IMG/VR virus record: IMGVR_UViG_3300001525_000208
Location: 15,019-79,018 of that record
DNA length: 64,000 bases
DNA from: a virus
Lineage: Duplodnaviria > Heunggongvirae > Uroviricota > Caudoviricetes
Strand: one strand, 5' to 3'
Shown here: positions 37,165 through 64,000 of the stretch, piece after piece
Numbering within the stretch: the first letter of the stretch is position 1
How the letters are laid out: each line of letters opens with the position of its first letter
Notes under the pieces: generated by a model
Database searches by the model: none
What the model was told of the DNA's origin: nothing
Seen by the model: the letters and a program-made list of their open reading frames with translations, nothing else
Program-made: the position numbers and the translations under genes

Positions 37165-37993
37165 TGTATCTTTAGCCAAATTTGTTATCTTAAAGGCTCT
37201 TTATCCTTTAATTCTATACTTTTATTTATATGTATAGTTCAGACTATATCTTTCATTCATTTTATATTCTCACGAATTTTACTCTGAACAGTGCCCCGCT
37301 TTCGTGGATGATTTTATAGCCTCGTCTTTCTCGTTAGGCATCACATCTAGTCGTTTAGCTTTTTCCTCAATTTCTTGAGGGTTTAGCACAAGATTGTCCT
37401 TTTCAGGAGTTTCCCTGTTTAACGGAGTTTTATAATGACACTTATAACTTATATTTCATGCAAGATACTATATAAGGCTCTATCAATCTTTTAAATTTAG
37501 GATATTCTTTACTTGGAATATATACAAGATTATCGGACTTATTATTTAAAGTTATAAAAATATTAAATTTAACTTTAAACATTTCTTTTATTAATTCTAA
37601 CTCTTGTTTAGAAAAATTATTAGTACATAACATACATCCTCCATAAGGATTACATTTATACCCATCATCCATATACCAGATAGCTAGTCCAAGAGGTTCT
37701 ATTTTAAATAAGTCATCCTTATATACTGTTTTCACTGGACGATACCAATTATAAAACATAGCATTTAATGATATAGAGGATTTAGTATAAAAAGAATAAT
37801 TATAATATTCAGGATTTTTTCTTCCGTTTGGTGGAAGTTTGTTATTTTTTCTAATTTTTGCAATAGTAGATTCAGAATCACCTGAAATTCTGGATATTTC
37901 AGAATCTTTTAATCCTTGTTCATAAAATTCTAAAAATTGATAGATTTCAAAATAGTTTTTCTTAAATTTCTATAAATTAATTATTTTATCATT
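37165..37993 (-). mobile_element. Group I intron in the dnaB-like helicase gene with a LAGLIDADG ORF in its 5' region. Boundaries are approximate.
   Basis: Minus-strand elements:
- S AAGATATAGTCTGAAC (37237-37252)
- R-like ACGACTAGA (37346-37354)
- GTTCAGAG (37283-37290)
- P-like AATTGAGGAAAAAG (37358-37371)
- P9-like hairpin CTATAC...GTATAG
The helicase is broken exactly in motif H4. Exons 1 and 2 are in different frames, which excludes an intein. Confidence 0.6.
37442..37759 (-). CDS. LAGLIDADG homing endonuclease (intron-encoded). Its frame is continuous upstream through an HTH-like segment to the TAG that ends helicase exon 1.
   Basis: LGLAIWYMDDGY is a LAGLIDADG motif. The upstream in-frame extension (37760-37969) encodes ...LKDSEISRISGDSESTIAKIRKNN (HTH-like). 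Confidence 0.6.
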   Translation of the reverse strand: MFYNWYRPVKTVYKDDLFKIEPLGLAIWYMDDGYKCNPYGGCMLCTNNFSKQELELIKEMFKVKFNIFITLNNKSDNLVYIPSKEYPKFKRLIEPYIVSCMKYKL

Positions 37994-38740
37994 AATACTA
38001 AAGGCCGATTTTCCCTGTTTGAATCTCTCGATATTACCTTGTTCGCGATTAGCTTGTTGGATTACGACAGGACTTATCTTACATTTCTCTCTTAGTACTA
38101 CTAAGTATGCAGATAAGTTATCGATTTCTTTCTTTAAAGTATTCCCTTGCTGAGGTCTTATTAATCCTATATGATCTATAATTACATTATATATCAAATT
38201 AGGATTATAAGGAGTATAAATGAGTCGGTTTTCACTTTCGGAAAAAGTTCCCATTTCCTCAAGTCGTTTCTTTAAAATTGAATAAACTGTATTAGCATTT
38301 ACTTGTTTATCGTAAATTTCCAGTTTACTTTCAATTTTATCTATCCAAGGTTTACACTTTTTGATTAATTCGTAATATTCCTCAGATAATACATAATCTC
38401 GTTCTCTAGATAGTATCTTTTTATAAGATAGTTCAATTCCATAGGTTTCAAATAAATACATAGACAATAACTTTATAAACAACGAAGTTGCATTCATTTC
38501 TAGAGAGAAATAAATAATTTTAAAGTCATCATCGTCAATATGAGCTTGTAAAGGTTTAAAAACATACGAGTAAAGTGCAAAACTCGTCTTACCTGCACCC
38601 GAATTACTCAGGATAAGTGTGTAAGTTTCACGAGTTACACCATCTATTATGCTTTCTAACTTAGGAAGACCCATAGGTATACCTTTATTTAAACCTAATC
38701 TACCTCTTTCAATTTCATTAAAGACACTGTCTGAAATCAA
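37994..38740 (-). CDS. dnaB: DnaB-like replicative helicase, exon 1 (RecA-like ATPase core)
   Basis: Walker A LSNSGAGKTSF, Walker B/H2 IIDHIGLI, and H3 VVIQQANREQGN. It stops within H4 (KSAFSIN...) at the intron boundary. Confidence 0.7.
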
Positions 38741-39354
38741 AGCATTTTAATTGTATTAAAGTTAATATTAGCTATTTCCCCGTTTTTAAGTGCTTCTAAT
38801 TCATTCCACCATTGATTTATTACAAATGAACTAATAGAGCAATTTAAAAATGTAGTATTATCTTTAGCCCATTGAACTAATTCTATAATTTTAGAATGAG
38901 TTTCAGGATTCCATTTAATACTTTTACCATAAAAACGAAAGAAATCTTCTAAAGAATTAAATTTCTTTGCTACTCCTCTTAATGCTACTAAAGATTCTCC
39001 AATATAACCAAATGCAGGATATATTTCAAAAAGTTCTTTTCCTAATTCAAAAGAAGCTTTATAGAATCGTTTTACAAAGGCTTTATTTAATTGAACTTCT
39101 TCCAAATCAAAAGCTGTGCCTGCTTCGGGAATTTTATAACTTTTTAGAATAACACCTTTAGATTGTAAAGATAAAAGAAGATCTCTAAATTTAATATTTA
39201 CTTTGGTGAGTATATTATTAAATTTAAATAAATATTCATCTTCATCTTCTTTAGCTAATAGAATAGTTCTAATAGCAGTCAATTCAGTAGGAGTAAGATT
39301 ATAAAAATCTAATAAATTTAATTCTTCGTCAAAATTTAAATTAAAAGTTTTCAA
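38737..39354 (-). CDS. Hypothetical protein
   Basis: 205-aa ORF, start-stop overlap with helicase exon 1. Confidence 0.4.
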   Translation of the reverse strand: MKTFNLNFDEELNLLDFYNLTPTELTAIRTILLAKEDEDEYLFKFNNILTKVNIKFRDLLLSLQSKGVILKSYKIPEAGTAFDLEEVQLNKAFVKRFYKASFELGKELFEIYPAFGYIGESLVALRGVAKKFNSLEDFFRFYGKSIKWNPETHSKIIELVQWAKDNTTFLNCSISSFVINQWWNELEALKNGEIANINFNTIKML

Positions 39355-47930: not shown

Positions 47931-48506
47931 TTAATAGTTTACATTTAAAGCATCAGGTACTTCAGGTTGAATTTTAGATAAAATATCTAAATTTTTATTT
48001 AAATCTTGTTGAGATTGTTTAAACGAAGGTGTTTCGGATACATCAGAAATTGATCTACGATAACTAGGTCCGTTCATTATACCTGATAATCTATTTACAT
48101 AATTATCATAAGTATCTGTATAATAATTACCTTTCTTTAAATTTCTTGCTAAAGAATCAGATGTAATAGTAGGAATTTCATGAACTTTATATTTATTTAT
48201 TAATAAATCAACAAAACCTTTAACTCCATCATCAAAAGTTTTGAAATTTTTAAATCCTCTTTTTACTTTTGTTCTAACTCCGTTTATAAGTTCATGAGTA
48301 GTTACAGAAGTTCCGTTATCATCTTTAATACCATAGTAATTATAATCTCCTGATTTACTAGTCCCCCATCCCGACTCTAATAAAGCTACACTCGTTAAAC
48401 CTTTAACTAAAGCGAAATTATTTATTTTATATTTATTTGCTAAGTAATCTCTGATTTTCTCAGTTATCATTTTAGCAAATTGAGATTTATTAAAAGTCAT
48501 AATCAA
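47931..48506 (-). CDS. GH73-like N-acetylglucosaminidase (second copy)
   Basis: ALLESGWGTSKSG...NYYGIK glucosaminidase motif. Confidence 0.55.
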   Translation of the reverse strand: MIMTFNKSQFAKMITEKIRDYLANKYKINNFALVKGLTSVALLESGWGTSKSGDYNYYGIKDDNGTSVTTHELINGVRTKVKRGFKNFKTFDDGVKGFVDLLINKYKVHEIPTITSDSLARNLKKGNYYTDTYDNYVNRLSGIMNGPSYRRSISDVSETPSFKQSQQDLNKNLDILSKIQPEVPDALNVNY

Positions 48507-48788
48507 AAATATAATTTAGATAATATCCAATACCCAACTTTTAAATACCAAGGATTCTTATTAATATCTACATCCTTAGTATGACTTCTAAATAAATGAA
48601 GATTGTATAACAAATTATGTCCTCTCCATTCATTTATCATAGTATCTTTATCTAATTGATTAATTACATAATCAGATTGAGGATAGTTATACTTTATTAC
48701 AGATAATACAAAACTCATATCTGCTTTACTTTTAATCAGATAAGAATCATATATTGTAATATTATCTTTAGTTACTTTATAATTTAAA

Positions 48789-49394
48789 TTAGGAATTGAT
48801 TTCATTTAAATACTTAATTATTCCATTATAATGAATATCTACTATAGTTTGCTTACCTTTATCTGATAATAAAAATTCTACATCTTCCTTATTATCTTGA
48901 AAAAGATTTTCAGTAAGTACAGTAGGACAATTAGTATCTCTACACATAGCAAGGTTTTGAGTCCAGTATTTTTCTTTTGGAACTGAACGATTACCTTGTA
49001 AATTTGATTTTTCTGCTTCTAAATAAATAAATTTTGCTAATTTTTTAGAATTATTGGAAGCATTTAAAGATACAAATACTTGCCAGCCACTTGCAGAATG
49101 CCATTTTCCATCAGCACCTGCTGCATTATTATGTATTGAAATAGCTATAGCTTTTTTATTATTATCTTTATAAACTTTATTAATACGTCTACATCTTTCT
49201 TTTAAAGATATATCAGTATCTACTTCGGGAGTTACAATAAATACATTATAACCATTACCTTTTAATTTTAAAGATAATAATTTTACTATTTCTCTAGCAC
49301 AAGCATACTCTTTTAATTTTTTATCAGGAGAACATTTTCCTGGAGTTGAAGAAGCATGTCCATTATCTAGACATATAATATAATCAGACTTCAT
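48789..49394 (-). CDS. N-acetylmuramoyl-L-alanine amidase (Amidase_3)
   Basis: ICLDNGHASSTPG, ISIHNNA and E...S motifs of MurNAc-LAA. Confidence 0.75.
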   Translation of the reverse strand: MKSDYIICLDNGHASSTPGKCSPDKKLKEYACAREIVKLLSLKLKGNGYNVFIVTPEVDTDISLKERCRRINKVYKDNNKKAIAISIHNNAAGADGKWHSASGWQVFVSLNASNNSKKLAKFIYLEAEKSNLQGNRSVPKEKYWTQNLAMCRDTNCPTVLTENLFQDNKEDVEFLLSDKGKQTIVDIHYNGIIKYLNEINS

Positions 49395-49712
49395 TTAAAA
49401 ATGATTTTATTTTTTCTTGTATTTCTTTTGATTGTAGTTTAAGCCATTTATTAGCATTATCTAAATTAGATACTTCTTTATAATATAGATAATCAATAAT
49501 ATTGTTATCTGAAATATCTTCATGATCTAAATAAAAATCAATAGGATCAATTTCATTTAATATAGGAGGTTCCCAATTATGAAGAATTTTTTAAAGTTTG
49601 TTTATTTAGTAGTATTCCCATTATTAAATAAATTTGTTAGAGGTATAGATAAAGAAAATGGGTATAAAGTTCGTCTTTATAATTTTTACTCATATACATA
49701 TATTAAAATTAG

Positions 49713-49785
49713 AGCTTCTACTCAGATTCGAACTGAGAACAACTTCATTACAAATGAAGAACTCTACCAATTGAGCTATAGAAGC
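49713..49785 (-). tRNA. tRNA-Thr (anticodon UGU)
   Basis: Manual fold: acceptor GCTTCTA/TAGAAGC, D-arm GCTC..GAGT, anticodon stem CTTCA/TGAAG with loop TTTGTAA, T-arm CTCAG-TTCGAAT-CTGAG. Confidence 0.8.
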
Positions 49786-49964
49786 AGAAAAGTATATTAA
49801 ATAAATTTAATTTCCATCATTTATAAAATATACTTTTATAATCAATAATTGACTAGTTTGTGTATTTCCGTAATACTCAGTTTTCTTTCTGAGAACGACT
49901 TTTGTAACGGACAAAAGAATAACAGCTTATACAATCTTTTAATTCCTTAATAAGAAGGAATGGA

Positions 49965-50037
49965 AATGTGGGCCTGGGGAATATTGAAATCCCGATCTTC
50001 GGTTTATGAGACCGCTGCTTTAACCTCTAAGCTACAA
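49965..50037 (-). tRNA. tRNA-Met/Ile2 (anticodon CAU)
   Basis: Acceptor GGGCTTG/CAGGCCC, anticodon loop CTCATAA, T-loop TTCAATA. One mismatch in the anticodon stem. Confidence 0.7.
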
Positions 50038-53000
50038 GCCCTATGATTTATATTACAAGCATTTATAAGCTTGTTCTATAAATCTATCAATGTATTTATC
50101 ATTATAAAAACAATCTATATTATATCTAAATTGTACTTTTCTTCCAACTTTATATTTAGATTGAATATAATTAAATACTTTTTGACCTTTTCTCCAATTA
50201 TCAGGGAGAGTTTTTATATTTTTAAAAATATCTCCTCTAAATTCTTCAAATGTCATAAAATGTGTTGATTTTATTGTCTTTATAATCTCTTACTATCGTA
50301 GAAGATTTTCTTGGAAAATGTTTAATATAATTTTCATAAGATTGTGCAAAACTAAAATTGGTAATAAACGCACATAATAAAAATATATATCTAAACATTA
50401 TAAATCTTTATTTAAAATTATCTTAAATCTTTTTAAATTGAGCATAAGTATGATTTAAAATAACAGGTTTATTATTTTGAGGATTTAATTCCTTAGTTCC
50501 ATCAGGATTAAGAATTTGAATCTTACAAAAAGAACATCTTTTTTCAACAATAATACCGTGTTTTCCTAAATCATTCTTATGCGTATGAGTAATTACTACT
50601 TCATCTCCTTCTTTATATAGAGTACGTAGTTTCATATTCTGTTATTTGTTTTTTAATATTTTCAATTAAAACATCTAATTGTTTTTTTCTCTCTTCTTTA
50701 TCTTGAATACAAGAAAGTTTAAAACAAGGTCTACTATAATTTTTAAATTGAAATTTTATAGGAATATTTTCCTCAGAGCCATAATAATCTAAAATTACTT
50801 TAGCTATTATAGCTTCCATATTTTTCTTTTTAAGTTTCATTTAAAAAATAAAATTTTAAAATCAATTTTGCAATTCTTTATCTAAAGATGGAATATAACA
50901 CGGAACAGCTAATATATCTTTAATTTTTAGTTCTGTTTCATATTCATCAACATCTGTACTTAATAATTGATCACAATCATCATAAATTCTATATTCTTCA
51001 TAATGACAAGTATTATAAGCTGTAATTAATATATTATTATAATACAATAGAAAGTTTTGTTGCCAAGTATGTGAATCTAATGCAATACAATTAAAATCTA
51101 ATATAACAGCTTTAATAATAGAGTTATTATTAGATATATTAATTATATCATATTGTTTATAATCATTCATAATTTTTAAATTCTTCAATATTATTAATAA
51201 CTATAGGTTGCCCATCTAAGAATAGAAAATAATCTGCTAGGGTATCTACATAATAAGTAGGGCCTGAGGACATTGTGACAGAATCATCTATTATTTTTGT
51301 AATAAGTACTATTCTATTACCAACTTTATCTCTCAAATACCCAAAACAATCATGCTTCTTAGCTTCTTTAATAAACTCTGAAGTTTTACATACTTTCTTT
51401 GTGTATTTGATTCTAAGAGGAATTTTGAATTCAACACATTCTTTTATTCTTTCAGGATCAGTAGTTTGTTTATAATTATTGGTTGTATTATCCCAATATT
51501 CTACTTTTTTATTCTTAAGTAATGCATCAAAGCATTTAATAATAATATCTTGTTTAGTCATATTTATTCAATATAATCATCAGTAGTACCAATTAATTTA
51601 GCTGTTTTTTCATTGTAAGGGAGACAATAAGTATACCAACCATTAATAGTAGTATAAGGAGCTTCTTTGCAAGATTTATCTTTATAACTAAAGAAATCAA
51701 TAGTCCAAGTATCAAGTTTATTATCTCTTACAACAACCTTGTCAAAAGGTTTAAAATGGTATTTTTCTTTCTTTTTAAGACTAAAGTTGTCCCAGTTTCT
51801 TACTTCTTTTGAAGGGAAGAGAAGACATTCTCCATTTATGTTATATTGGCCATAACTATTAAATGTAAAAAATCCTATTTCTTCATCAACAAAAACAGTT
51901 AGATCTCCATTATCTAAAATTCTACTCAAATATACGTCACCACAGAGAGGGCTATAAAGTTTGAATCCTTCACGTAAGAAAGCTTGATAATATCCTTGAG
52001 TTGCATCTTTGAGTAAATCTGCTATATTATTCATATGTCACTGTTTTTAAGTTATATTCTATGTTATTGAATTCTCCTTCTGTAGTATCAGAGATTTCTT
52101 TACCATCACCATCTTTATAAAATCTTTCAAAAGCTTCTGTAGGACTTGTAGCATCTATTTCATATACTCTAGTCCTAGTAAGATGTTCTATTTGTGTTAT
52201 TTGATATGTTTTCATAAGGATTTCAATAAAAAACAAATCATAAAGTATATAAATACTAGAGTAAATACATACTAAATGATAGGTTACAATTATAAAACCA
52301 AACAAAAATGTCTATTATTCTACTAGTTTACCAAAAGGAGTATTATCAGCAAATTGAAATGAATCTAATGCTTCTTTAAAAGTATAAGCTAGATGTTCAT
52401 CAGGATAAGCATCTAGCATAAGTTCATCTTCAGCTACTGATATAATAGGTTGTTTAATACCTTGTTTAGTGAATGTAATCCAACTAAAAGGTTGATGTTT
52501 GAGCATTTCTTCCCAACATTCTTCTTTAGTTTCAAAAGAAACATATTTAGGTTCAGGTTTTACTCTGAAAGTAATATCTGCTTCCATAAAGGTTTGAATG
52601 TCTACAATTTTAAGTTCATCTAGGTCTATCCAAGCCCCTGTATCATAGACACCATTATCTTTATATTGAATAGTTTTACCTTCTGAATATGCTTTAAGAA
52701 TAGGAAGTATGTCTTTAATTTGATTTGATGTCATAATTTAAAAATAAATACGTTTATACTTTATATTACCACATTTTGTACATTGAAGGAGAAATCCTTT
52801 AGCACATTGCTCATGAGTTTTATCGTACAAAGGAACTTCATTTAATAAAGTCCAATGATGACGATGAAATAATAAATCGTAAATTCTAGTAAACATATCT
52901 AAACATAATTAAAATCTAATAAAATGAGGAAACCTTGTTAATGTCTTATTTTACATCTCATTGAGAAAACCTCTTTGTCTACATATTACTATGTAGTTCT

Positions 53001-53310
53001 GCTTATTTGTTTTACTGTGGATTCTAAAAGCATTTTCTTATGTAACATCGTCCTATTTTATATAGGATTAAAGATATACAGCCACAAACTCTATTAAAAG
53101 AGATAGTATAATTAAAATTATGAAGAAGATTAAAATAATAAAAGAGAGTGTATAAAATAGTTTAATGTTTCATCACTATTAATACACTCTCTTGTCGTAA
53201 TTAAATTACCTGTACTGCTGCTTGGTCACAGTCCTACCACCCTTCGTATATCTTGTTGCACAAGGGCGAAAAAGTCACCAATTTGTAGATTATTGGGAAC
53301 TGAAACATAG

Positions 53311-53384
53311 TGACTCCGACGAGATTCAAACTCGTGACAAATAATTTAGAAGATTATTGCTCTATTCAGCTGAGCTACGGAGTC
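53311..53384 (-). tRNA. tRNA-Arg (anticodon UCU)
   Basis: Acceptor GACTCCG/CGGAGTC, D-arm TAGCTCAGCTGAATAGAGC, anticodon stem ATAAT/ATTAT with loop CTTCTAA, T-arm CGAGTTTGAATCTCG. Confidence 0.8.
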
Positions 53385-53534
53385 ATATTTACAATAATAA
53401 TATTTATATTATAAATAAAAAAGAGTAGTTATAAAACTACTCTTTTCACTTATAAATTAAGTCTTACTTGAACCATATAAATAATTCATTTTAAAATATA
53501 ATTTTAAGTTAAACAATTTATTAAGTAAGACTTT

Positions 53535-54092
53535 TTACCAAGTATAATTAGGATCACATAATACTAAATATTTGCTATAATTATAATCTTCATTACCAAG
53601 TCTTACATTATGACCATTGATGTTTTCTATTTTAGCATCAGGCATATAAGGACTATAATCATAATGTCTATATGTAGTATATGTAATATCCCATAAAACT
53701 TGATAACGATATTTATAATCACTTTTTAAATCTCCTTTTAAATTCTTTTTGGGAATTTTACAAAGAAGATAAGGTTCATCCCAAGATAACCAAAGCATAT
53801 ACTCATGATAAATCAATCTTGCATAATAGAACTCATTATCTTCAAATAAAGTTATTTCCCATAATTGGCTAACTCCAACAGGCCACCCTGTGGGTCCAAC
53901 TTCGACATCAAATCCAGTTTTTGCTTCACTTAATACTAGATTAGCATTTGGAATATTAATGTCATGATCTAGGTTGGTAATATTAAAATCTAGATTTTTC
54001 TTACTAAACACTCGATGTTGAAATCGAAAGATACTCCAACTAATAAATACGACAATTATTAGTCCTAAGAGAATACTTATAAAATATATCAT
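53535..54092 (-). CDS. Hypothetical membrane-anchored protein
   Basis: N-terminal TM segment MIYFISILLGLIIVVFISWSIF. Confidence 0.4.
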   Translation of the reverse strand: MIYFISILLGLIIVVFISWSIFRFQHRVFSKKNLDFNITNLDHDINIPNANLVLSEAKTGFDVEVGPTGWPVGVSQLWEITLFEDNEFYYARLIYHEYMLWLSWDEPYLLCKIPKKNLKGDLKSDYKYRYQVLWDITYTTYRHYDYSPYMPDAKIENINGHNVRLGNEDYNYSKYLVLCDPNYTW

Positions 54093-54109
54093 ACAGATTA
54101 ATTATTGGT

Positions 54110-54260
54110 TACAATTAAAACCCTACTAGTTTGACTAAAAAGTCAGGGACTAGTAGGAAAAAGAACAACGTTGTTGCTGTATAGAGAGTCGAACTCTATA
54201 ATTGACCATCACAGCAAGAATATTCTCCATTTGAGAATATTCTGATTAATTAATTACTAA
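54110..54260. repeat. Cluster of perfect palindromes and hairpins in a non-coding region
   Basis: - cctactagt...actagtagg, with a nested tgact-aaaa-agtca (54122-54157)
- 12-bp palindrome aacaacgttgtt (54164-54175)
- tatagag-agtcgaa-ctctata inside gctgt...acagc (54176-54215)
- an 11-bp stem agaatattctc...gagaatattct (54216-54245). Confidence 0.6.
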
Positions 54261-54383
54261 TTAATAGGAATCATACAACTAGGAGTAAGTAAAGTTGTTG
54301 ATGCCAATAAGTTACTAATTGCTTTTAAAATTCTTTTCATAATCTAATATATTTTAGTTAATAATAAGTTATCTTTAGAATTG

Positions 54384-54470
54384 TAGCTCGAACGGGACTC
54401 GAACCCGTAAGTTCTTTTCAGAACAGTAGATTTTCATAAGAGTTTCACATCTCTCTTGGACTATGTCTTC
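54384..54470 (-). tRNA. tRNA-like element or fragment. It has a canonical T-arm and acceptor 3' half plus a variable-arm-like hairpin, but no convincing 5' half or anticodon arm.
   Basis: Minus strand has ACGGG-TTCGAGT-CCCGT followed by TCGAGCT, preceded by GTTC-TGAAAA-GAAC. No matching 5' acceptor strand was found within 150 nt. Confidence 0.3.
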
Positions 54471-54582
54471 TCCTTATTATTTATAACTTAGGAGGTTGGT
54501 ATATAGTCTCTACACATTTATGTAATAAAATTACAATTTAGCTCGGCGTTATTATCATTTTAAGGCTGATACCTTCACCGAA

Positions 54583-54873
54583 TTAGCCAACTTCTACATC
54601 AGAGATTTCTCCCTGTGTACTCATACCTATATTTTTACCTCTATAATTATCCGTAAAAGCATGACAATTAGGACATAATACTTGAAGATTACAAAGCCTT
54701 AAATCATCCTTAATACCATTTATATGATGTAACTCTAATTTAATAGGCTTTTCTAACCATTCAGTTCTTCCACAACACTCACATTTATATTCTTTTACAT
54801 TTTCTTTTAGTAATCTTTCACGAAGATGATTAGTGTTTATAAATGTAGAATGTTCTACTAAGATTTCAGACAA
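54583..54873 (-). CDS. HNH endonuclease (free-standing)
   Basis: Two CxxC pairs and ELHHINGIKDDLRLCNLQVLCPNCH. Confidence 0.65.
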   Translation of the reverse strand: MSEILVEHSTFINTNHLRERLLKENVKEYKCECCGRTEWLEKPIKLELHHINGIKDDLRLCNLQVLCPNCHAFTDNYRGKNIGMSTQGEISDVEVG

Positions 54874-55435
54874 AGGTTGTTTTTGTTTAATTTGTCTATA
54901 TCTTTTTCCCTAATTCCATACTTTTCCAGTCATATGAGAGGTATCTAAATTTAATTCATCAATTTTTCGTTTTATAGTATCATAGTTACTTCCTGCAACT
55001 TTAAGTCCTATTTTTCGTAGAACTTTTGCATAAGATAAGCTAGTTTTTACTGCTTCAATAAATTGAATATATCAAATTAAATTTAGGTGAATTTATTTTC
55101 TTCAAAGTCTACTGCGTTTACCTATTTCGCCATCGAGCCGATAACTAGTTTATTTTATTCCTAAACTAGTAAAAGAATACTTTTTAATCTTCACATACAA
55201 CTACTGAATCTGTATTAATAGAATCAGAATCAACTACAGTAGAATCTTGTTCAGAAGATGATTCTACATGTTTGTTACAACTAATAAATGAAGTACTAAA
55301 AAGTACTGCAAATACAAAAATAAGCTTTTTCATATTAAATATATTTTTAATTATTAATATTCAAATTAAAAATTACTCTATTCTCACGAACCAAGTAATT
55401 CAAGTTATCAAACGTTATTTCACATAATATAATTG

Positions 55436-55517
55436 TTGGAATAATAGGAATCGAACCTATATTATCTGGCCCAAAATCAGATGTAATAACCATTATACTA
55501 TATTCCAGTTTGTAGAA
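55436..55517 (-). tRNA. tRNA-Gln (anticodon UUG)
   Basis: Acceptor TGGAATA/TATTCCA (U1-A72, as in bacterial tRNA-Gln). Anticodon loop TTTTGGG with a 4-bp stem plus A.C. T-arm ATAGG-TTCGATT-CCTAT. Confidence 0.65.
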
Positions 55518-55582
55518 CCGATATTCACATATGAGTTCTACTTCAACTATAATCACTTAAAACATTTAACGAACTATGCTTG

Positions 55583-55656
55583 CGCTTTAGGTAGGATTCG
55601 AACCTGCGACCCTCTGATTAACAGTCAGATGCTCTAACCAACTGAGCTACTAAAGC
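55583..55656 (-). tRNA. tRNA-Asn (anticodon GUU)
   Basis: Acceptor GCTTTAG/CTAAAGC, D-arm TAGCTCAGTTGGTTAGAGC, anticodon stem TCTGA/TCAGA with loop CTGTTAA, T-loop TTCGAAT. Confidence 0.8.
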
Positions 55657-56990
55657 TTAGATAATATTTTATTAATATTATCATTTTAATTACTAATACT
55701 GTTTATAAATATACTCTTTATTTTTTTAATTACAAAAATGCTTAACTGTTAAATGATTTTAAGAGCTAATTATGATTTTTGTAATGTTGAGTTTACAATC
55801 CAAGATACTATAAATACAGATTCAATTTTCGGATTTAATTCGTGAATATTAAAACCCCTTTCTTTAATATCATTAATAATATTATCTTTAGAATCTAATA
55901 AATCGGGTGTAAGTTCTACTAAACAATAAGATTTATTATTTCTTGCTTTATTAGTGATTATATTATTTAAATCTTTAATAAAATCACTAATCCGTTTGTC
56001 TAAGGATTCCAATTTTCCTGTAATTGAAAGTAATCTTGCATCTTCACTTGTAATTGGTTTTTGTTTCGGTGAAATAATTGTTTTTAAAATATCTGTCATG
56101 GTTTGTAAATTTTATAACCTTTCTTTAATAAATAATTAATACAATATGATTCTTCATTGAATACTAATTCAGTATTAGTAGAATTACGTTTTCTAGCATA
56201 ACATTGTTTAGTTTTCTCATTTTTGTATTCTTTAATTTGAGTCATTAAATTTGCGATTTTTTCTTGGAGAATATTAGTTGGACTAAAATAATACTCTCTT
56301 TTATCTCTAATTATAGAATTAGTATTAATTAATTTTTGAAGAAGTGCTAATCCGTTAGGATATTGTTTGAATTCTTTTTCAAGTTCGTAACGTAAAAATC
56401 TACGACCTTTACTTGCTAATCTGAAAGAATTAATTTCTATTGTAATATCTGAAATTGTCATTGTTGTTTGAATTTTATCTTGTTATTAAATAAGGTATTC
56501 TCTAAGATACTTATTTTACTAAGCACTTAAAGAATACCGAGCCTTTAGTATATTCCACCTAAAGGGAGATTTCTACATTAAAGATTGATATAATATGTTG
56601 AATTTCATGCATATAGTGAATGTCAGCAATGAAGACTGATAAGCTTCCAAAACCTGTAATAATTTCTAGATATACACCAATGCAATCACTTTCCATGTTC
56701 AAACGAATTCTTCTATTATCATCAATATATTTAACAATATTCTTAATATACTGATTTTCTTTATGTTTATAGAAGTGATTTGATTTGAGATGTTTTTTGA
56801 AGATTTCACATGGTTTTATTTCTTCTAAAGGTACAGTTAATGTATCTTCATCTTGAAATTGAATCTTAGCGAAAGTTTCACTTACACCAAGAATAATTAC
56901 TACATCATGGTGATAAGTTACAATGTCGTTGATTTTGAGATCTGTTGCTTTCATTTTGTTGTTGTTTTAGTGAGTGAATAAATGGATTTG

Positions 56991-57062
56991 TCCTCATAAT
57001 AGGAATCGAACCTATAACTATATCTTATAAATGATTTGTTTTACCAATTAAACTATATGAGG
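56991..57062 (-). tRNA. tRNA-like gene with a degenerate anticodon arm (possibly Ile-UAU; the loop contains TTTATAA)
   Basis: Perfect acceptor CCTCATA/TATGAGG, D-stem GTTT/AAAC, and T-arm ATAGG-TTCGATT-CCTAT. The 17-nt anticodon-arm segment AATCATTTATAAGATAT cannot form a 5-bp stem. Confidence 0.45.
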
Positions 57063-57636
57063 TTGTTTTAGTGCAATAAAAGTATCTATTCTCACGAACC
57101 AATACTTTTGGATGAAAAATCGTTTCATCTGATTAAATTCAATAACTCACTAAAACGTAATTAATTCTATTTGTCTGAGTAAAGCTCTTTGAGCCTTAAT
57201 CTCTTTTCTAAAGAAATCATACACTCTTTTTCTTTTATCAGTTCTTAAGTCTGAGAGTGTAGATTTATTGAGAATTCTCCCATTTCTGTTCATACAAACA
57301 GTATAAAGGGAGATGAGTTTATGCAGTTCTTCAATGCCATTAAATTCTTGGCAAGGAAAATACATATTTCTGCATACTTTGATGTTCTTTTTAACTGCTT
57401 CTTTTGAAGCTTCAGCTAAAGAAGAATATTGTTGATTATCTCTTGTGAGAGTGTTGTCTTGGATGAAGTATATGTAATACATAGTTGTTATTGATTTAAT
57501 TGTGATTCATAATTTTCAATTAGTTTAAGATCTTCGTGATTAGTCATCTGATAACCTACAAAAAAGCTAAGAAGACAAAGACAAATTACTAAAAGTGGAA
57601 TATTACGTTTCATTGTTGTGAATGGTTATTAAAAAG

Positions 57637-57720
57637 TACCTCTAATGGGATTTGAACCCATACTTCCTTATGGAAATAGCATTTTAAGTGCTACGTGTCT
57701 ACCACTTCCACCATAGAGGC
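57637..57720 (-). tRNA. tRNA-Leu (anticodon UAA), type II
   Basis: Acceptor GCCTCTA/TAGAGGT, anticodon stem TAGCA/TGCTA with loop CTTAAAA, long variable arm TTTCCATAAGGAAGT, T-arm ATGGG-TTCAAAT-CCCAT. Confidence 0.8.
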
Positions 57721-58645
57721 TTTGTTAATTATTATTGTTTGTTCTTTTTATCTTGAGTGTAACAAATAGTCATTAATAAACAACCATTTGTAAATGTTGA
57801 TAATGCTAATCCTACTACAAATGCAATAGTACAAGGGTCATTGTTTAAAAGACCTATACAAGTACAAATAAGTAGAACTAAAGTACAGCAACAAGAGAAA
57901 ATTAATGATTTCATTTTGTTTGGTTTTATATAACTGAGGTTTTAGATATTATTTTCATACCAATCTGCTACAGTGTCAAATTCTTCTTCTGTAAGGTCTG
58001 ATACTGTAGTATAGTAGTTACAAGCTGTTATGTATTTAGCTTGTGAGCAAGTGGACTCTATAATAGAATCCAATTTGTTAAGGCATTCTTGTTTTGTCAT
58101 TATCTTATACGATTTAATTTATACTATTGCGAGGTTTCACAGACACAGAGCCATTATCTATATGATAGTTTCTCTCTGTGTTTCGTCCAGTCTCATCAGT
58201 ATGAATTTTAACGTCTCCTGGATGACGATTTTTTACTTTTTAGCAAACAAGAAATGAACATTAATTTGATAGTTTGACCTTATACTAACTATTCAAGGTT
58301 TTGTTGATAAAATGGTTAATTCGTATTAAGTTGGGATAATTTTGGATTTGGTTGGTGTGGGTGATGGTTGTGTTGGGAGGGTGGTGATGAGCTGCTTCGT
58401 TCTTAACATATCACGAACGATACACCAATACACCTTTCCATCAATTAACCAATCTTCTCCACCACGAATACTCATCCATTTACCAGACTCAACATCTTTG
58501 TACAAACTGTCACCATACTTACGTACTTTGACAGTCTTAAGTCTTTCGTCAGGATGCATAATATGTATACATATTAAAATCTAAAAACTTAAGTTACTTC
58601 GAATGACTCGTTATAACCTAAATTTTTAGATTTTTTCAACATATA

Positions 58646-59131
58646 CTACTCTGCATCTATGGTAGGAATATTAGTATTTACGAGAGCATCACCATCAAAA
58701 TTGAGAGTTTTGATAGTCATCATGTCCGAAAACTTAATCTTCTTACCTCCGAAATACTTAACTGCTTCGTCAATTGAGGCAAACTCACGGAACTTTTCTG
58801 CACAAGAACCAGTAGTATGAACTCGGTTACCTGTAGGAGTCATGTCGTCATTATATACGGCACGAGACTTCCACATAATTGACGGATAGAATCGCTTAGC
58901 GCAATTCTTAGTACCTGTTGTTGCGTTGGATACATCAACAAGAATGAACTGAGCACTATTGGTTCCAATCTTCTGATTGTAAACCTTGTACTCTTCAGGC
59001 ATTACGAACTCATCACCTTTCTCAAACGAGTTAAGGTCTACATCACGAGTTGCGCCAGTAAATGCATTACCAGCTACTTCAATACCTTTTGTCTTAGAAA
59101 GACGATCGATTTCAACAGTCATTGCTGCCAT
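58646..59131 (-). CDS. Hypothetical protein inside the GC-rich segment
   Basis: 161-aa ORF. Local GC and amino-acid composition (A/G/T/V-rich) differ from the rest of the window. Confidence 0.4.
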   Translation of the reverse strand: MAAMTVEIDRLSKTKGIEVAGNAFTGATRDVDLNSFEKGDEFVMPEEYKVYNQKIGTNSAQFILVDVSNATTGTKNCAKRFYPSIMWKSRAVYNDDMTPTGNRVHTTGSCAEKFREFASIDEAVKYFGGKKIKFSDMMTIKTLNFDGDALVNTNIPTIDAE

Positions 59132-60016
59132 TGTCTTGGTGTGGATTTACCTATATCACCCACGAGGTTTTAATAAAAATTGGAATCACTGTCTTAGGTG
59201 GATTCATAACCTACGTATACATTTATACTCCTATACGCAGAGTAGACAAGCGGTTGCTTGCCTACATCGCTATCGCAAGTTATACCTTTGGCTATTTTTT
59301 ATAATATATATTGGCTATCTTTACCCCCTTTCCGACCTCGGCAACGGATGCCCGATGAGGGGCACCACGTTGTGAGGTGTGGGAATCAATAGCAATTGTA
59401 AAACGCTATCGTGGAAAGGTTGTAAACCTTTTCGGTTTCGTTTGCAATGTATTCAAGTTCTTTGCCTTGTTCAACACAATCGCAAAGAACTTTAAAGACT
59501 CTGCGTTTTATCCAATCTTGCGAGTTTTTCGGTTTGAGTGGAACGTTATTGTAGATAATTGCAAATTCGGGATGCCTAATGCTTTGCAGTGCAACGTATG
59601 TTTTTGTTTGCTCTATGATTGCGAAGCGGTCAAATTTGTATTCGGAATTGTCGGAAATGATTGCTTTAAAAATGTTGTTCATTGTTGTATGAGTTTTTTT
59701 GTTGTTGGTGGAGTTGAGTATAAATAAGCCTTTTTACAACGTGCTTAGGTTGTGTTTGTTTTATTTCTCTGTAACGTAAGATATAAGAGAGAAAACGAAC
59801 TTAAAGAAAAGTCCATAGAATAAAAACATTAGGAAAAGATTAAGTGCGTAAGGTTCGGTATAGCCAAAAACCAAAGTTGCAACAATCATAAGAACTAACA
59901 CCAATGCAGATGTTATGCCAAAGAAAAGAATATTTTTCATTTTCGTAAAATTTTGATGAGTTGTAAGTGATTAAATATGCACGTTGATTAAACGCTCAAC
60001 GTGCAAAGCGTGTGTG

Positions 60017-60439
60017 TTAAACGAAATCAATAACTAAAACACTTGCTTGCCCGTTGTCAGTTAAGAAATAGTCCTTTGTTAGATTAAGGATTTTATCCTT
60101 AACTTGTGCAAACATAGCGTCCATTACGTTTTCGTTGGTTTTGTCGGTGATGGAATCGGCTGCCTTTTTCATCGCCTCAACCGCTGCGCCGTGTGCGGTG
60201 TGTGGCTTTGCGTTCTTATCAAGTTTAACCTTGAAAAGCGATGAAGCGTAAACTGGAATGTTTTTATTAGTAAGGAAAATGGGGCAGTTGGTTACGCTTT
60301 CCTTAAACTGAACTTGCGAAAAACTCCAACCGATAATTTGAAGTTTGCCTTCTTGCAAACCTCCGAAATTAAATTGTTGGTTGAAGGCTTCGTTCTCTTT
60401 GCGTTTGTCTTCTGCGACGATTGTAGCGTTAAATGCCAT
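60017..60439 (-). CDS. Hypothetical protein inside the GC-rich segment
   Basis: 140-aa ORF with atypical (higher-GC) composition. Confidence 0.4.
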   Translation of the reverse strand: MAFNATIVAEDKRKENEAFNQQFNFGGLQEGKLQIIGWSFSQVQFKESVTNCPIFLTNKNIPVYASSLFKVKLDKNAKPHTAHGAAVEAMKKAADSITDKTNENVMDAMFAQVKDKILNLTKDYFLTDNGQASVLVIDFV

Positions 60440-60906
60440 AGTAATAAAATTTTAAGTGAGTAATTAAATGAGTGATTGTGTGCGAGCCGAGGGCGTACCC
60501 CCTGTTCGATAGAACAGTATAGGAATATATATGCTGGCTATTTTCCATCCGATGGGGGGAGGGGGTCCCCACCGGAGGTCTACCCACCCGCCCATCACCA
60601 TCAAAAATTTTACTCCAAAAAATCCACCCATATAACATAAGAAGGAATTTTTATCTAACTCATTGATTATCAGTGACTTACAAAATTTATAGTCATTATC
60701 AGATGTGTCACAATTTTAATGACTTTGAATTTTAGATTTAATTTTTTGAAATATAAAAATTATGACTATGTTTAATAATAAAAGTAAATCGTATGAAACA
60801 ATTCTGCCAAGTGTATATTATTTAAATCCTGAATATTTCTTTAAAGGTAAAATTTTAGATAGAACTAATATTATTAAAAATATAGTTGAATATAAATTTG
60901 TATAAA

Positions 60907-60940
60907 ACAAAAAACGCAGATTCTTTAATTAGAATCTGCG
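60907..60940. terminator. Hairpin terminator (bidirectional), 3' of late gene 60946..62145
   Basis: aacgcagattct-ttaatt-agaatctgcgtt is a 12-bp perfect stem flanked by A/T runs. Confidence 0.6.
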
Positions 60941-60945
60941 TTTTA

Positions 60946-62145
60946 TTATTTAATTCTTCGAATTAATCCACCGTTTTTATAATTATTACTTTTAGATGCC
61001 TATATCTGTTTCTTAACTTCATCAACAGCTTCTTGAGAAACACCTAAACCTTTTAATACTCTTTGACCTTCTTTCATTGCATTTCCAGTATCATCAAAAA
61101 TATCTCTACCTGTTGCTGCATTATATCCATCATCAGTTGCACTTAGTATACTTACAATATCATCTCCATGAAATTTATTTAATGTAACAAGTGATCCTAG
61201 ATCTAACAATGTATGAACTATATTCTTAGCAGAAACATCATTTATTAATGATTTAGCATCAAGACCAAAATCAGGAAGATTCTGTGCAATCATATGATAT
61301 ACTTTATATTTAGAAGGAAATAAACTAACAACATTATTCCATACTGATAATCCTGAAGCTATTCTTTGTAATACTTCATTATCACTATCTGCTAATAAAC
61401 CAACTCCATCACCTAATAATGAAAATGCATCTACTCCTAATTGAACTTTATCCCAAGTACTCTATCCTTTAAACCACTGACCTGCTTTAATACCATATTT
61501 TTTGGCATAACTGGCTACTTGTTTAGCAATTTGACCTGCGTATTTAGAAGCGTAATTGACTAATTTAAAAGCTTGTGGTGCAAAAGATGCTGCACCTTCT
61601 AGTAATATTGGTGAAAGAATAAGTCCAGCGGCTACAGCAGCAGTAAAGTTACCTGCACTTTCAAAAGCATCATGAATTTCTGCATATCCTTTAGGATTTC
61701 GAATAGATTCAAAATTACCTGCTTCAGTTAAAGTTTTAGGTTTAGCCCAAAGATTATTACTGGAAATCCAATCACGAAGGTTGTCTTGTTGCTAAACATC
61801 ATCTATTAATATGTTATAATTTTTATCTACTAATACTGTTTTACCGTCTACTGTATTAATAAATGAATAACCTTTTTCTTTAGCAACTTCAGGAGGCATA
61901 ACAAGTTCTCCTTTATTATTATATCTGAATCCTTGTTTTATCTATTCATTAGTAAGTTTATTCGTTCCATATCTAATTCCTTGTTTAACTTCATTTTGTG
62001 CTTCATTTCTTTTATCATTTTCACGCCAAAGTTCTACTTCAGAATCTTCTGAGAATAAATCGTTATTCCAACTTTTATTAACTATAGAATTATTTTTAAT
62101 TGGTTTGACAGGGTTTCCTGAAACTTTAATTTCAATATCAGCCAT
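60946..62145 (-). CDS. Late protein (about 400 aa), readable only with TAG translated. It has four in-frame TAG codons.
   Basis: Track ORFs 61942..62145 and 61000..61293 share one frame. The intervening stops at plus 61942-44, 61792-94, 61462-64 and 61000-02 are all CTA, which is TAG on the minus strand. The frame terminates with TAA at 60946-48. Confidence 0.6.
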
Positions 62146-62160
62146 AATTTTAAGTTTATA

Positions 62161-62216
62161 CTATTTTTGAATTATATTTACAATAATACTATTTTTGAAT
62201 TATATTTACAATAATA
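62161..62216 (+). promoter_or_regulatory. Tandem 28-bp direct repeat carrying a Bacteroidetes-type promoter (-33 TTTG and -7 TAttTTTG), oriented toward gene 62265..62687. A third, inverted copy of the core lies at 62284-62304.
   Basis: ctatttttgaattatatttacaataata appears twice (62161-62188 and 62189-62216). TTTG at 62166-69 and TATTTTTG at 62190-97 are spaced 20 nt apart. Confidence 0.5.
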
Positions 62217-62264
62217 CTGAAAAGTTCTTCATCGTAATTTCAGACGATTTACAAATTTTAATAT

Positions 62265-62687
62265 TTGGAATTATTGAAAAATTATATTATTATTGTAAAT
62301 ATAATAATTAAATACTTATTGATAATGAAAAATGAAATAATTAATGAATGGTTGAAGAGTTTTGGAACTCTTATTAATAAAGAAAAATCAGAAGGAGTTA
62401 CTCATTACGAATTTGACTTTGAAGGGTCACCTGTTCATATTTGGACAAGTGACGGAATGCTTAAATTAGAGTATAAATATAACAATCTTGAAGATGAGTT
62501 TTTAAAGTATTGTGAATCTTTAGATGATGATATTTTTGTAGAAGCTTGTGAACGTTTTAATGAATATAAACCTATTAGAGAATTTTCAAAGAATATAAAT
62601 TCTGAAGATATTAAATTTTTTAAGACTATAGTTGAAAAAATTGTCTGTGAAAAAATTAATTATTATAAAGAAATGATAGAAAGATAA
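62265..62687 (+). CDS. Hypothetical protein (standard code, TAA stop)
   Basis: 140-aa ORF downstream of the promoter repeat. Confidence 0.45.
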   Translation: MELLKNYIIIVNIIIKYLLIMKNEIINEWLKSFGTLINKEKSEGVTHYEFDFEGSPVHIWTSDGMLKLEYKYNNLEDEFLKYCESLDDDIFVEACERFNEYKPIREFSKNINSEDIKFFKTIVEKIVCEKINYYKEMIER

Positions 62688-62688
62688 A

Positions 62689-62713
62689 CAATAACTACTC
62701 TTTAAAGAGTAGT
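62689..62713 (+). terminator. Palindromic hairpin downstream of 62265..62687
   Basis: aactactcttt|aaagagtagtt is a perfect 11-bp palindrome followed by tctatt. Confidence 0.4.
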
Positions 62714-62719
62714 TTCTAT

Positions 62720-62793
62720 TGGAGTGTAGTATAAAGGTTTAATTACGATGGTCTCTAAAACCGAAGATCTGAGTTCGAGTCTCAGCGCTCCGA
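62720..62793 (+). tRNA. Amber suppressor tRNA (anticodon CUA), type I. Its acceptor and D-arm resemble the phage tRNA-Gln(UUG), so Gln identity is predicted.
   Basis: Manual fold:
- acceptor TGGAGTG/CGCTCCG (two G.U)
- U8
- D-arm GTAT-AAAGGTTTAA-TTAC with GG
- anticodon stem ATGGT/ACCGA with loop C-U-CUA-A-A (CUA at 62755-62757)
- 4-nt variable loop
- perfect T-arm CTGAG-TTCGAGT-CTCAG
- discriminator A. Confidence 0.75.
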
Positions 62794-63020
62794 CTATTTA
62801 ATTCAATACCTGATATGTTAGATAAATTTACTAATTACTTATTAAAGAAAATGTATAATCAATCTATTAATATTTGTAATAATATAGATAAAATTGTACG
62901 TATTTCAAATAAACAAAACACTCAAGATTTTATAAATTGGCAAGATGCTTTAAATAAGATAAGTGTAAAATAATTAATTTTAAACCAAGCGGGCCTATTC
63001 AGGTTCGCTTTTATTTTTAT

Positions 63021-64000
63021 ATGGCGAAAAAAACATACGAACACAGACCTATTGCGGTAGCACAAAGTGATGCTACTAATGTAAATTCTCGAATTAGATC
63101 TTTCTTAGAAACTCTACGTGCTAATGATAGAGCTAAAGCGGTTGAAGATATTAATGAAGATTCTTATTGGGGTTAGTTTAATCCTGAAGGAGGATGGGTT
63201 ATTTTGCGAGAAACATATACGCTCAAACCCACTTTATATTATAAAGATGCGTCTGATAAACTACACGCTGTACCTGAAAAATATATTAATTCTATTATAA
63301 AGAATCATCATGGACTTTATAGAGATTGGAATGAAGCAGAAACTGATTATTAGAATAATTTAATAAAATTTGGACTTACTCCTACTGTAGTAAGTGCAGC
63401 TCCTGTAGATAATAGAAGTGAAGCTATTAAAGAATATGAACGAAGAGGAAGACGTGCTGCTTATGAACACGATCAAGCAGAAGCTGACGCTTAGAAGGGT
63501 ATTAATATTGCATTGAATGCTATGTCACCTGGTTATTATATAGATAAGACAGGCATACTAGATAATATGTCTGAAGCAGATGCAGAAATTACTAAGGTTG
63601 GGGCTGATTTCGCCCCTGTTATTCTGACAGCTGGTGCTCAAGCTGGTGCTCAAGCTGGTGCTCGGATTGCAAACAGTTTAGTTAAAAGAGCTGCACGAAG
63701 AGCCACGCAAGCTTCAGCTAGAGAAGCAGAACAAGTTTTAGCTAGAGAAGCAGAACAAGTTTTAGCTAGAGAAGCAGAACAAGCAATGGTCAAAAGAGCG
63801 AAAGAATCATTGGCTAGACAAGCTTCAGCTAGAGAAGGAGAAACTATTGTTAATAGACCAGTTAATTTTGAAGACTTGGTGGCTGCTTATTCTAAAAAAG
63901 GTAAAAAAGGTAAAAGAGCACCTTAGCCGAATAGAACTACAGTTGAAACACCTGTTAAACCTGCAGAACCTGTTAAACCTGCAGAACCTGTTGTTGAAAC
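63021..64000 (+). CDS. Late protein, 3'-partial, readable only with TAG translated. It has four in-frame TAG codons and internal tandem repeats (GAQA x3, AREAEQVL x3, PVKPAEP x2+).
   Basis: ATG at 63021. In-frame TAGs at about 63174, 63351, 63492 and 63924, with no TAA or TGA to the window end. Nucleotide tandem repeats at 63630-63662, 63717-63784 and 63951-63990. Confidence 0.6.
63717..63784 (+). repeat. 24-nt tandem repeat (2.8 copies) encoding AREAEQVL
   Basis: gctagagaagcagaacaagtttta is repeated exactly twice, then a third copy is diverged at its end. Confidence 0.8.

Follow-up and report, generated by a model that had tools for sequence, protein, structure and literature searches.

A phage tRNA(CUA) gene within a conserved ORF1-tRNA-ORF2 cassette and the probable reading of TAG as glutamine in a lineage of large gut-type phages

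We analysed a stretch of 64,000 nucleotides (nt), called here the window, which corresponds to positions 15,019 to 79,018 of the IMG/VR virus record IMGVR_UViG_3300001525_000208 (Caudoviricetes) and consists of AT-rich phage DNA with a G+C content of 25-32%. Our subject is a transfer RNA (tRNA) gene at 62720-62793 of the plus strand which, judged from its sequence, is very probably a phage-encoded amber suppressor of glutamine type, serving a recoding of TAG to glutamine (genetic code 15). Its anticodon, CUA, lies at 62755-62757, the discriminator base is the A at 62793, and the CCA end is not encoded. The gene belongs to a small unit placed between two protein-coding genes, C and B, in which open reading frame (ORF) 1, a hairpin, the tRNA, ORF2 and a terminator-like hairpin follow one another in this order.

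Precisely, the unit begins with ORF1 (62325-62687, +), a TAG-free reading frame of 120 amino acids (aa) with the motif F..YC..LDDDIFVEACE, which ends 32 nt before the tRNA. A perfect palindromic hairpin of 11+11 nt (62693-62714) stands between the ORF1 stop codon and the 5′ end of the tRNA, and it is kept in relatives by compensatory changes (AACTACTCTTTAAAGAGTAGTT in the window versus AATTACTTCTTATTAGAAGTAATT in the relatives). Downstream from the tRNA lies ORF2 (62815-62973, +), which encodes a micro-protein of 52 aa, is likewise TAG-free and has the C-terminal motif NTQ(D/E)F(I/L)NWQDxLNxISV. The terminator-like element (62987-63020, +), composed of a G+C hairpin (62987-63010) and a T tract, reaches directly to the ATG of gene B, and relatives have it conserved; a terminator scan returned 2 sites against 0.1 expected.

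Both flanking genes contain in-frame TAG codons. Gene B (63021-64000, +, continuing beyond the window end and about 699 aa long in relatives) has them at 63174, 63351, 63492 and 63924 and is the first TAG-containing gene downstream from the tRNA, and gene C (60946-62145, -, 399 aa) has them at 61942-44, 61792-94, 61462-64 and 61000-02. A preliminary description of this DNA had placed the tRNA between recoded genes. The distances agree with those that it had reported, the ATG of gene C (62145) being 575 nt away and that of gene B (63021) 228 nt. This position is right as far as C and B flank the tRNA; the direct neighbours, however, are the TAG-free ORF1 and ORF2, and gene C is divergent from ORF1. 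A third TAG-containing gene, gene A, is represented at the opposite end of the window by its 3′ 1024 codons (1-3075, +; full length about 1580 aa) with 14 in-frame TAGs, and its homologues have a precomputed match to PF12705 (PDDEXK_1).

The preliminary description had also taken the element for a fully canonical cloverleaf of 74 nt and had proposed ARAGORN as a check. This program called a tRNA gene at 62720-62794 (+) with the anticodon cta, the same that is seen in the sequence, and the Rfam family RF00005 matched 62720-62793 with 50.1 bits (E=9e-8), well over its gathering score of 29. The acceptor strands are UGGAGUG and CGCUCCG (62720-26 and 62786-92), with a spacer of two bases between acceptor and D stem; the D arm (62729-46) is GUAU-AAAGGUUUAA-UUAC and contains G18G19; the anticodon stem AUGGU/ACCGA bears the loop CUCUAAA (62753-59) with U33, the CUA and A37; the variable loop is AGAU (4 nt), and the T stem CUGAG/CUCAG, paired in 5/5 positions, bears the T loop UUCGAGU. 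The elements that had been listed before (T stem, T loop, G18G19, U33 and A37) are therefore all there on reading the sequence, and the gene has the features of a bacterial-type elongator tRNA with three exceptions, U13.U22, A27.A43 and U1.G72, for which the words "fully canonical" had to be dropped.

To judge the cloverleaf independently of the single sequence, we aligned it with 15 related metagenomic tRNAs (16 sequences). In this alignment 98.7% of the cells were paired, versus about 42% when the 3′ partners were slid, both sides had changed in 15 of the 19 pairs, and none of 500 shuffles reached the observed covariation score, so that all the four helices are backed by covariation. Our own covariance model gave the suppressor tRNA 81.6 bits. 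The tRNA was also 100% identical across four related contigs (L003-L006) in which the flanking proteins are 80-88% identical. Some features are less favourable to a real tRNA gene: U13.U22 and A27.A43 are flagged as non-standard pairs in the Rfam alignment, the pair 1-72 is a U.G wobble, the minimum free energy fold of the single sequence is not a cloverleaf (z-score -0.5), and the Rfam score is the lowest among the 8 tRNAs of the window. They could be taken as signs of a decayed or chance tRNA-like sequence, the TAG-containing ORFs being then pseudogenes, but we give this explanation hardly any credence, because the score is 21 bits over the gathering threshold, the tRNA is unchanged where its neighbours diverge, the covariation across the tRNA family is strong, and the TAG positions of the ORFs are conserved with codon usage of coding type around them. 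We conclude that 62720-62793 is a genuine tRNA gene with a conserved cloverleaf.

The CUA anticodon is complementary to UAG, and the genes A, B and C cannot be translated without read-through of UAG, so that the earlier reading of the gene as an amber suppressor is upheld. ARAGORN labelled it "tRNA-Pyl" because of the anticodon alone, and a pyrrolysine tRNA would have nothing else in its favour than this label and the CUA itself. In tRNA-Pyl, G18G19 and the T-psi-C motif are missing, and the D loop and the variable loop are both shortened. In the suppressor tRNA, on the contrary, the G18G19, the UUCGAGU loop, the two-base spacer and the 4-nt variable loop are those of an ordinary tRNA; besides, no pylS or pylBCD-like Pfam match was obtained among the window ORFs tested, and TAG aligns with glutamine, as described below. 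This identity is, in effect, refuted.

We then considered which amino acid is placed at UAG. Genes A, B and C have 22 in-frame TAGs in total, with codon usage of coding type on either side of every one of them, and in gene A TAG makes up 14 of the 48 glutamine-type codons. When gene A was compared with 68 homologues of about 1580 aa, the TAGs of the window fell on columns with glutamine in 54 to 68 of the 68 sequences. These raw counts are partly circular and to this extent weaken the glutamine reading, since the database homologues had been called with TAG as glutamine: in fact, translation of their loci in code 11 does not give the query, and the 14 TAGs of one of them (P0001) are all written Q. 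For this reason we used comparisons at the DNA level. At column 1228 (glutamine in 68/68) TAG is present in the window and in the related contig L001 and CAA in the contig L007; at column 1806 (66/68) TAG in the window corresponds to CAA in both relatives; at the columns 1954 and 2070, also rich in glutamine, it is the window that has CAA and a relative that has TAG. In the genes A, B and C taken together, compared with close relatives, TAG was conserved as TAG at 11 positions, and 9 of the 15 discordant TAG sites paired with CAA or CAG, where the frequency of glutamine codons is 3.3% (binomial p=2e-10). Each exchange between TAG and CAA requires two substitutions, and their repetition argues for synonymy. 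At the DNA level, hence, the in-frame TAGs of conserved genes align with glutamine, from which UAG appears to be read as glutamine in this phage.

The body of the tRNA points in the same direction, in part. Its 5′ acceptor strand and D arm match those of the phage tRNA-Gln(UUG) encoded at 55435-55507 (-) in 22 of 27 positions, the D arms differing by one base and a two-base insertion in the loop and having U13.U22 in common, and both tRNAs have A73. The anticodon arm and variable loop match instead those of the phage tRNA(CAU) at 49968-50041 (-) in 18 of 23 positions, and the difference in the anticodon arm is essentially the change of CAU to CUA. With an acceptor and D arm like those of tRNA-Gln and an anticodon arm like that of tRNA(CAU), the gene looks like a mosaic. 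The identity set of the glutaminyl-tRNA synthetase (GlnRS) of E. coli comprises a weak 1-72 pair with U1, G2-C71, G3-C70, G10, U35, G73 and U38. The suppressor tRNA has U1.G72, G2-C71, G3-C70, G10 and U35, all common to the phage tRNA-Gln(UUG) as well. Since A73 is found in this phage tRNA-Gln and in nearly all the related CUA tRNAs, the rules of the host may differ from those of E. coli; a search for the host through bacterial tRNA-Gln genes with an identical D arm matched 2 contigs of metagenome-assembled genomes and gave no host.

Among the closest known systems is supE (glnV44) of E. coli, an amber suppressor that is a tRNA-Gln with a CUA anticodon. Both have a body of glutamine type (weak U1 pair, G2-C71, G3-C70, G10, U35) in which position 36 is changed; supE reads UAG as glutamine, and the phage tRNA would do likewise. 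Unlike supE, the tRNA described here is phage-encoded, has A73 and A38 for G73 and U38 and U1.G72 for U1-A72, and has an anticodon arm unlike that of the phage tRNA-Gln.

Three observations weigh against glutamine: G73 and U38 of the E. coli set are replaced by A73 and A38, the anticodon arm is nearer to the phage tRNA(CAU) than to the phage tRNA-Gln, and 6 of the 15 discordant TAG sites pair with other codons, namely AAT, AAA, GAA, TAT, TTG and ACG, each in a single exchange. Together with two TAGs that fall on Phe/Tyr columns in L007, a more distant relative, these are the reasons for thinking of a true suppressor that would place another amino acid, such as Lys, Glu, Tyr or Leu, at UAG or that would be charged ambiguously. 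We regard this as unlikely, in view of the predominance of CAA and CAG among the exchanges, of the window TAGs on columns with glutamine in 66-68 of 68 homologues for which relatives have CAA in their DNA, of the recurrence of a two-step exchange and of the glutamine-type acceptor stem and D arm. Pairings with codons other than those of glutamine are expected at a protein divergence of about 12-20%, yet some ambiguity is compatible with the data.

TAG use is confined to a subset of the phage genes. Besides A, B and C, it was observed in the genes of close relatives. Gene C had only two close homologues, of which P0069 is 88% identical with its TAGs conserved. The gene B homologue of the contig L005 has 699 aa and 6 TAGs, and in L003 and L005 it is followed on the same strand by a gene for a glucosaminidase-domain protein of 246 aa (7 TAGs) and, further on, by those for a two-helix membrane protein of 71 aa (1 TAG) and a protein of 700 aa (5 TAGs). 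The region of about 3.7-59 kb of the window is, on the other hand, a minus-strand block of replication and nucleotide-metabolism genes which is essentially TAG-free. It encodes NrdD with its activase-like iron-sulphur protein, a DNA polymerase, a ligase, a dUTPase, ThyX, a Dda-like helicase and another helicase, DnaB- and DnaG-like proteins, exonucleases and a sigma-70-family factor, and it contains seven tRNAs at 49712-57720. We judged the placement of TAG in the block by means of a codon-usage score trained on long ORFs, and nearly all the TAGs were either upstream from the real start or serving as stop. Only about 7 of 97 block ORFs end with TAG, and in 6 of these 7 a TAA or TGA follows within 18 codons.

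The seventh is a DnaB fragment (37970-38746), whose frame is open for 175 codons more, into an ORF for a LAGLIDADG endonuclease. The in-frame TAG of this combined frame (37442-38746, -) was tried as a case of recoding and rejected, since it marks the junction between the DnaB-like helicase fragment of 258 aa and the endonuclease ORF. Another endonuclease ORF, of the GIY-YIG type, adjoins a DNA polymerase fragment of 481 aa (14980-17384, -), and both regions look like insertions of homing endonucleases or of introns or inteins into replication genes rather than like recoding.

The distribution of TAG bears on a different explanation of the tRNA, in which it would not be required for phage genes and would act against the host, by read-through of host UAG stops that weakens host or defence proteins. 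"Idle" suppressor tRNAs are reported in the literature for related kinds of phage, and such a role could coexist with the decoding of phage genes. On its own we consider it quite improbable, because three conserved genes of the window contain 22 or more in-frame TAGs between them and further ones occur after gene B in the relatives: with TAGs in its own genes, the phage needs the tRNA for its own proteins.

Further points count against the reading, drawn from the sequence, of the tRNA as a glutamine-type suppressor for a subset of genes. A glucosaminidase-domain gene (47931-48515, -) and an Amidase_3-domain gene (48789-49394, -) lie inside the TAG-free block, so that the statement that all lysis genes are recoded fails here; cell-wall hydrolases of both kinds, that is, in standard code in the window and TAG-recoded downstream from gene B in the relatives, were in fact observed in this lineage. 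Moreover, a scan of 42 window ORFs, about 75-690 aa long and for the most part of at least 150 aa, revealed neither a release factor nor an aminoacyl-tRNA synthetase, the window being only a part of a genome of about 150-175 kb.

We scanned metagenomes for tRNAs with the same D arm and the CUA loop and obtained 35 loci, many of them on contigs of 157-192 kb. The set of 40 tRNA-bearing loci that we considered was formed by the window, L003-L006 and 34 of these 35 pattern-selected loci (L034 had no ARAGORN call). Homologues of ORF1, 19-42% identical, were directly upstream from the CUA tRNA and co-oriented with it in 23 of the 40 loci, and ORF1 was present in 18 of the 26 with at least 1 kb of upstream sequence. 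By means of hidden Markov models and clustering of the context, ORF2 was found next to the CUA tRNA in 39 of 44 loci; it was missing only at L029, L031, L032 and L042, whose CUA tRNAs differ in having an acceptor stem that is unrelated, and at L034, where the tRNA is at the locus edge. The order was either ORF1-tRNA-ORF2 or ORF1-ORF2-tRNA. Of the flanking genes (B, C and those of the glucosaminidase and the 700-aa protein), essentially no homologues were detectable in these loci.

A reverse test was made with ORF1 alone, which was searched against 1.8 billion representative proteins; it returned 24 clusters, and contigs were fetched for seven of these tRNA-independent homologues. A CUA tRNA lay downstream from ORF1, at 8-150 nt, in 6 of the 6 that could be evaluated: at 10 nt for P0073 (L043), at 8 nt for P0075 (L044 and L045) and at 146 nt for P0079 (L046), with the tRNA cut by an assembly gap for P0084 (L047), cut by the contig end for P0088 (L050) and, for P0082 (L051 and L052), divided in its anticodon loop by about 190 inserted nt. 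For P0090 (L053) the contig was too short to evaluate. The tRNAs of L047, L050 and L051 were missed by ARAGORN and were found because ORF1 pointed to them. The two halves of the broken CUA tRNA of L051 (1710-1969; the same in L052) were both found by the covariance model, and the insertion is possibly an intron. The cassette of ORF1, tRNA and ORF2 is therefore conserved.

The ORF1 protein is acidic (isoelectric point 4.8 and net charge -9; family median isoelectric point 4.7), and its family has the invariant motif LDD(D)IF..(A)CE. An AlphaFold2 model with a predicted local distance difference test (pLDDT) value of 86 begins with a helix at the N-terminus, which is followed by a meander of four strands and a helical bundle; the model made from the single sequence was poor (pLDDT 50). 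Searches gave no Pfam, PHROG or credible PDB sequence match for ORF1, and the model had no informative fold match. In the PHROG and Pfam searches there was likewise no match for the genes A, B and C, for ORF2, which had no PDB match either, or for the giant proteins encoded upstream in relatives. The beta-meander of ORF1 (residues 24-55) has matches to as many as 29 repeated stretches of two giant proteins, P0072 and P0087 (2767-2888 aa), with which it may have a beta-hairpin repeat in common. The ORF1 of L012 and that of L028 carry in-frame TAGs themselves, so the standard code of ORF1 is not universal. As for ORF2, its differences from close relatives (5 non-synonymous and 1 synonymous) had suggested a non-coding sequence, an explanation that we rejected, since the motif NTQEFLNWQD.LN.ISV of its C-terminus recurs in distant loci.

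It is conceivable, and we put it forward as a tentative proposal with the odds rather against it, that the cassette is a dedicated mobile "code-switch" unit in which ORF1 and ORF2 would be accessory factors for the reassignment of UAG. The two proteins might act by neutralising release factor 1, by helping the CUA tRNA to be charged or used, or by setting the time at which it is expressed. The presence of ORF2 in 39 of 44 loci and of ORF1 in 18 of 26, the 6 of 6 of the reverse test, the variable order of tRNA and ORF2 and the surrounding genes, which are not detectably conserved, are partly in favour of such a unit. The pattern could also be synteny inherited within one large phage clade.

With regard to mechanism, the suppressor reading would imply the following. 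The tRNA would be transcribed and processed at its 5′ and 3′ ends, and the CCA would be added by the host, because it is not encoded. The tRNA would be charged with glutamine by a GlnRS, presumably that of the host, since none was found in the window. The CUA would then pair with UAG in competition with the host release factor 1 and would insert glutamine at the in-frame TAGs, making translatable the genes A, B and C of the window and those of the glucosaminidase, the small membrane protein and the 700-aa protein in close relatives, while the replication block would be readable in the standard code of the host with no need of suppression. The tRNA would be expressed from its own small unit, apart from the tRNA island, and, if one argues by analogy from published models, it is when this unit is expressed that the TAG-containing and probably late genes would become translatable. 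The cassette as a temporal switch is thus suggested by this analogy, and the charging by GlnRS, the timing of expression and any role of ORF1 and ORF2 are points that we infer.

As the preliminary description had stated, the gene is on the strand opposite to the main tRNA island, the seven tRNAs of the minus strand. A regulation separate from that of the island, which it had suggested, is plausible because of this other strand and of the small unit to which the tRNA belongs, and is to be taken as an inference. In the intergenic region from which gene C and ORF1 diverge, a tandem 28-bp repeat, ACTATTTTTGAATTATATTTACAATAAT, is present in two copies (62160-62215); relatives have 2.6 copies, with about 42 extra bases in this region. 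Inside the repeat, at 62166-62197 (+), there is a match to TTTG-N20-TAnnTTTG, which could be the promoter of the cassette. It is only a weak lead, because the Bacteroides-type motif TTTG-N18-22-TAnnTTTG, with 8 occurrences in the window against 3.8 expected, is not clearly enriched and is mostly not upstream from genes. The sigma-70-family factor (regions 1.2, 2, 3 and 4; 17710-18558, -), which is TAG-free, is a candidate for the control of transcription in the middle or late phase, and the tRNA cassette is possibly among its targets.

Some other RNA features were observed. On many related contigs (L008, L012, L013, L016, L028, L030 and L041) there is a tandem pair of CUA tRNAs (for example at 1869-2037 of L012), one of 73 nt and the other of 88-91 nt, the latter with a glutamine-like D arm and a long variable arm (a GCCTTCTGAGGGC hairpin) that is unusual for a glutamine-type tRNA. 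In the island of the window, the tRNA at 56990-57062 (-; Rfam 57.4 bits) has an anticodon loop of 8 nt, AUUUAUAA, for which ARAGORN gave an anticodon of four bases, "ttat", but assigned no amino acid; this tRNA could read UAU (Ile) or UUA, or be a quadruplet decoder, and a segment of about 1 kb that includes it is absent from L003. A RAGATH-1 hammerhead ribozyme (58137-58228, -; 65.2 bits, gathering score 56.3) lies about 420 nt upstream from tRNA-Leu(UAA), on the same strand. Theta ribozymes, which are HDV-like (hepatitis delta virus), are reported next to suppressor tRNAs in recoded gut phages (PMC10879173), and they and the ORF1/ORF2 cassette are alike in being proposed accessories of suppressor tRNAs in such phages. 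The flanks of the tRNA described here, unlike those of the theta-ribozyme tRNAs, are the 5′ hairpin and ORF2, and an Rfam scan of 56900-62900 by E-value gave the tRNAs, the one hammerhead and a few weak hits of chance level, below threshold, to unrelated families, and no HDV-like ribozyme, it being unchecked whether Rfam 15 has a dedicated theta model.

The phenomenon of the suppressor tRNA itself is already known. According to four papers (bioRxiv 10.1101/2021.08.26.457843; PMC9523058; PMC12386605; PMC10607447), phages that recode TAG to glutamine and have a tRNA(CUA) include crAss-like phages (with the zeta group), Lak, Agate, Garnet, Topaz and phAss-1, and for the crAss-like phages there is proteomic proof of this recoding in late genes. 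The phage of the window resembles them, as far as they are described there, in the CUA anticodon, in TAG on glutamine positions, in a subset of recoded genes with the replication genes in standard code, in the rarity of TAG as a true stop, and in being a large AT-rich phage from gut-type metagenomes. It differs from them in that its tRNA shares a cassette with two orphan ORFs, of which the passages found in those papers by term search say nothing, and in its lineage, which has no close relative among 50,697 GenBank phage records.

In one of these papers, Jade phages are described with a "code-change module", formed by a suppressor tRNA, a tryptophanyl-tRNA synthetase and release factor 1 in standard code, upstream from a recoded lysis cassette (bioRxiv 10.1101/2021.08.26.457843). 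As in that description, a standard-code unit with a suppressor tRNA is here directly upstream from recoded genes, which in relatives include the glucosaminidase and the small membrane protein. Unlike there, the reassignment is of TAG to glutamine and not of TGA to tryptophan, and the partners that adjoin the tRNA, ORF1 and ORF2, are two small orphan proteins instead of a synthetase and a release factor, so that the unit does not classify as a code-change module.

The lineage is absent from the GenBank phages. The DNA of 60-64 kb had one 88-bp match only among them, tblastn with gene A found three unannotated faecal contigs, tblastn with ORF1 found none, and the DNA polymerase is at most 36% identical to those of diverse phages. 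Scans of IMG/VR with the gene B protein, with the exact anticodon arm and with a degenerate pattern of glutamine-type CUA tRNAs were empty, a scan of Joint Genome Institute metagenomes with the gene B protein found nothing, and a search of a large protein database with gene B found nothing, the query itself included.

This is hence one more confirmed case of TAG read as glutamine, in a poorly sampled lineage of large gut-type phages. Since the standard code fragments genes A, B and C, windows such as this one need annotation with code 15. What is new here is the conserved ORF1-tRNA(CUA)-ORF2 cassette, which offers a testable lead on how the code switch is implemented; the field has yet to settle how recoded phages overcome release factor 1 of the host and how they time the switch. 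ORF1 and ORF2, which almost always travel with the suppressor tRNA, are candidates for the code-switch machinery, and they are a practical marker for recoded phages and for divergent suppressor tRNAs that standard finders miss.

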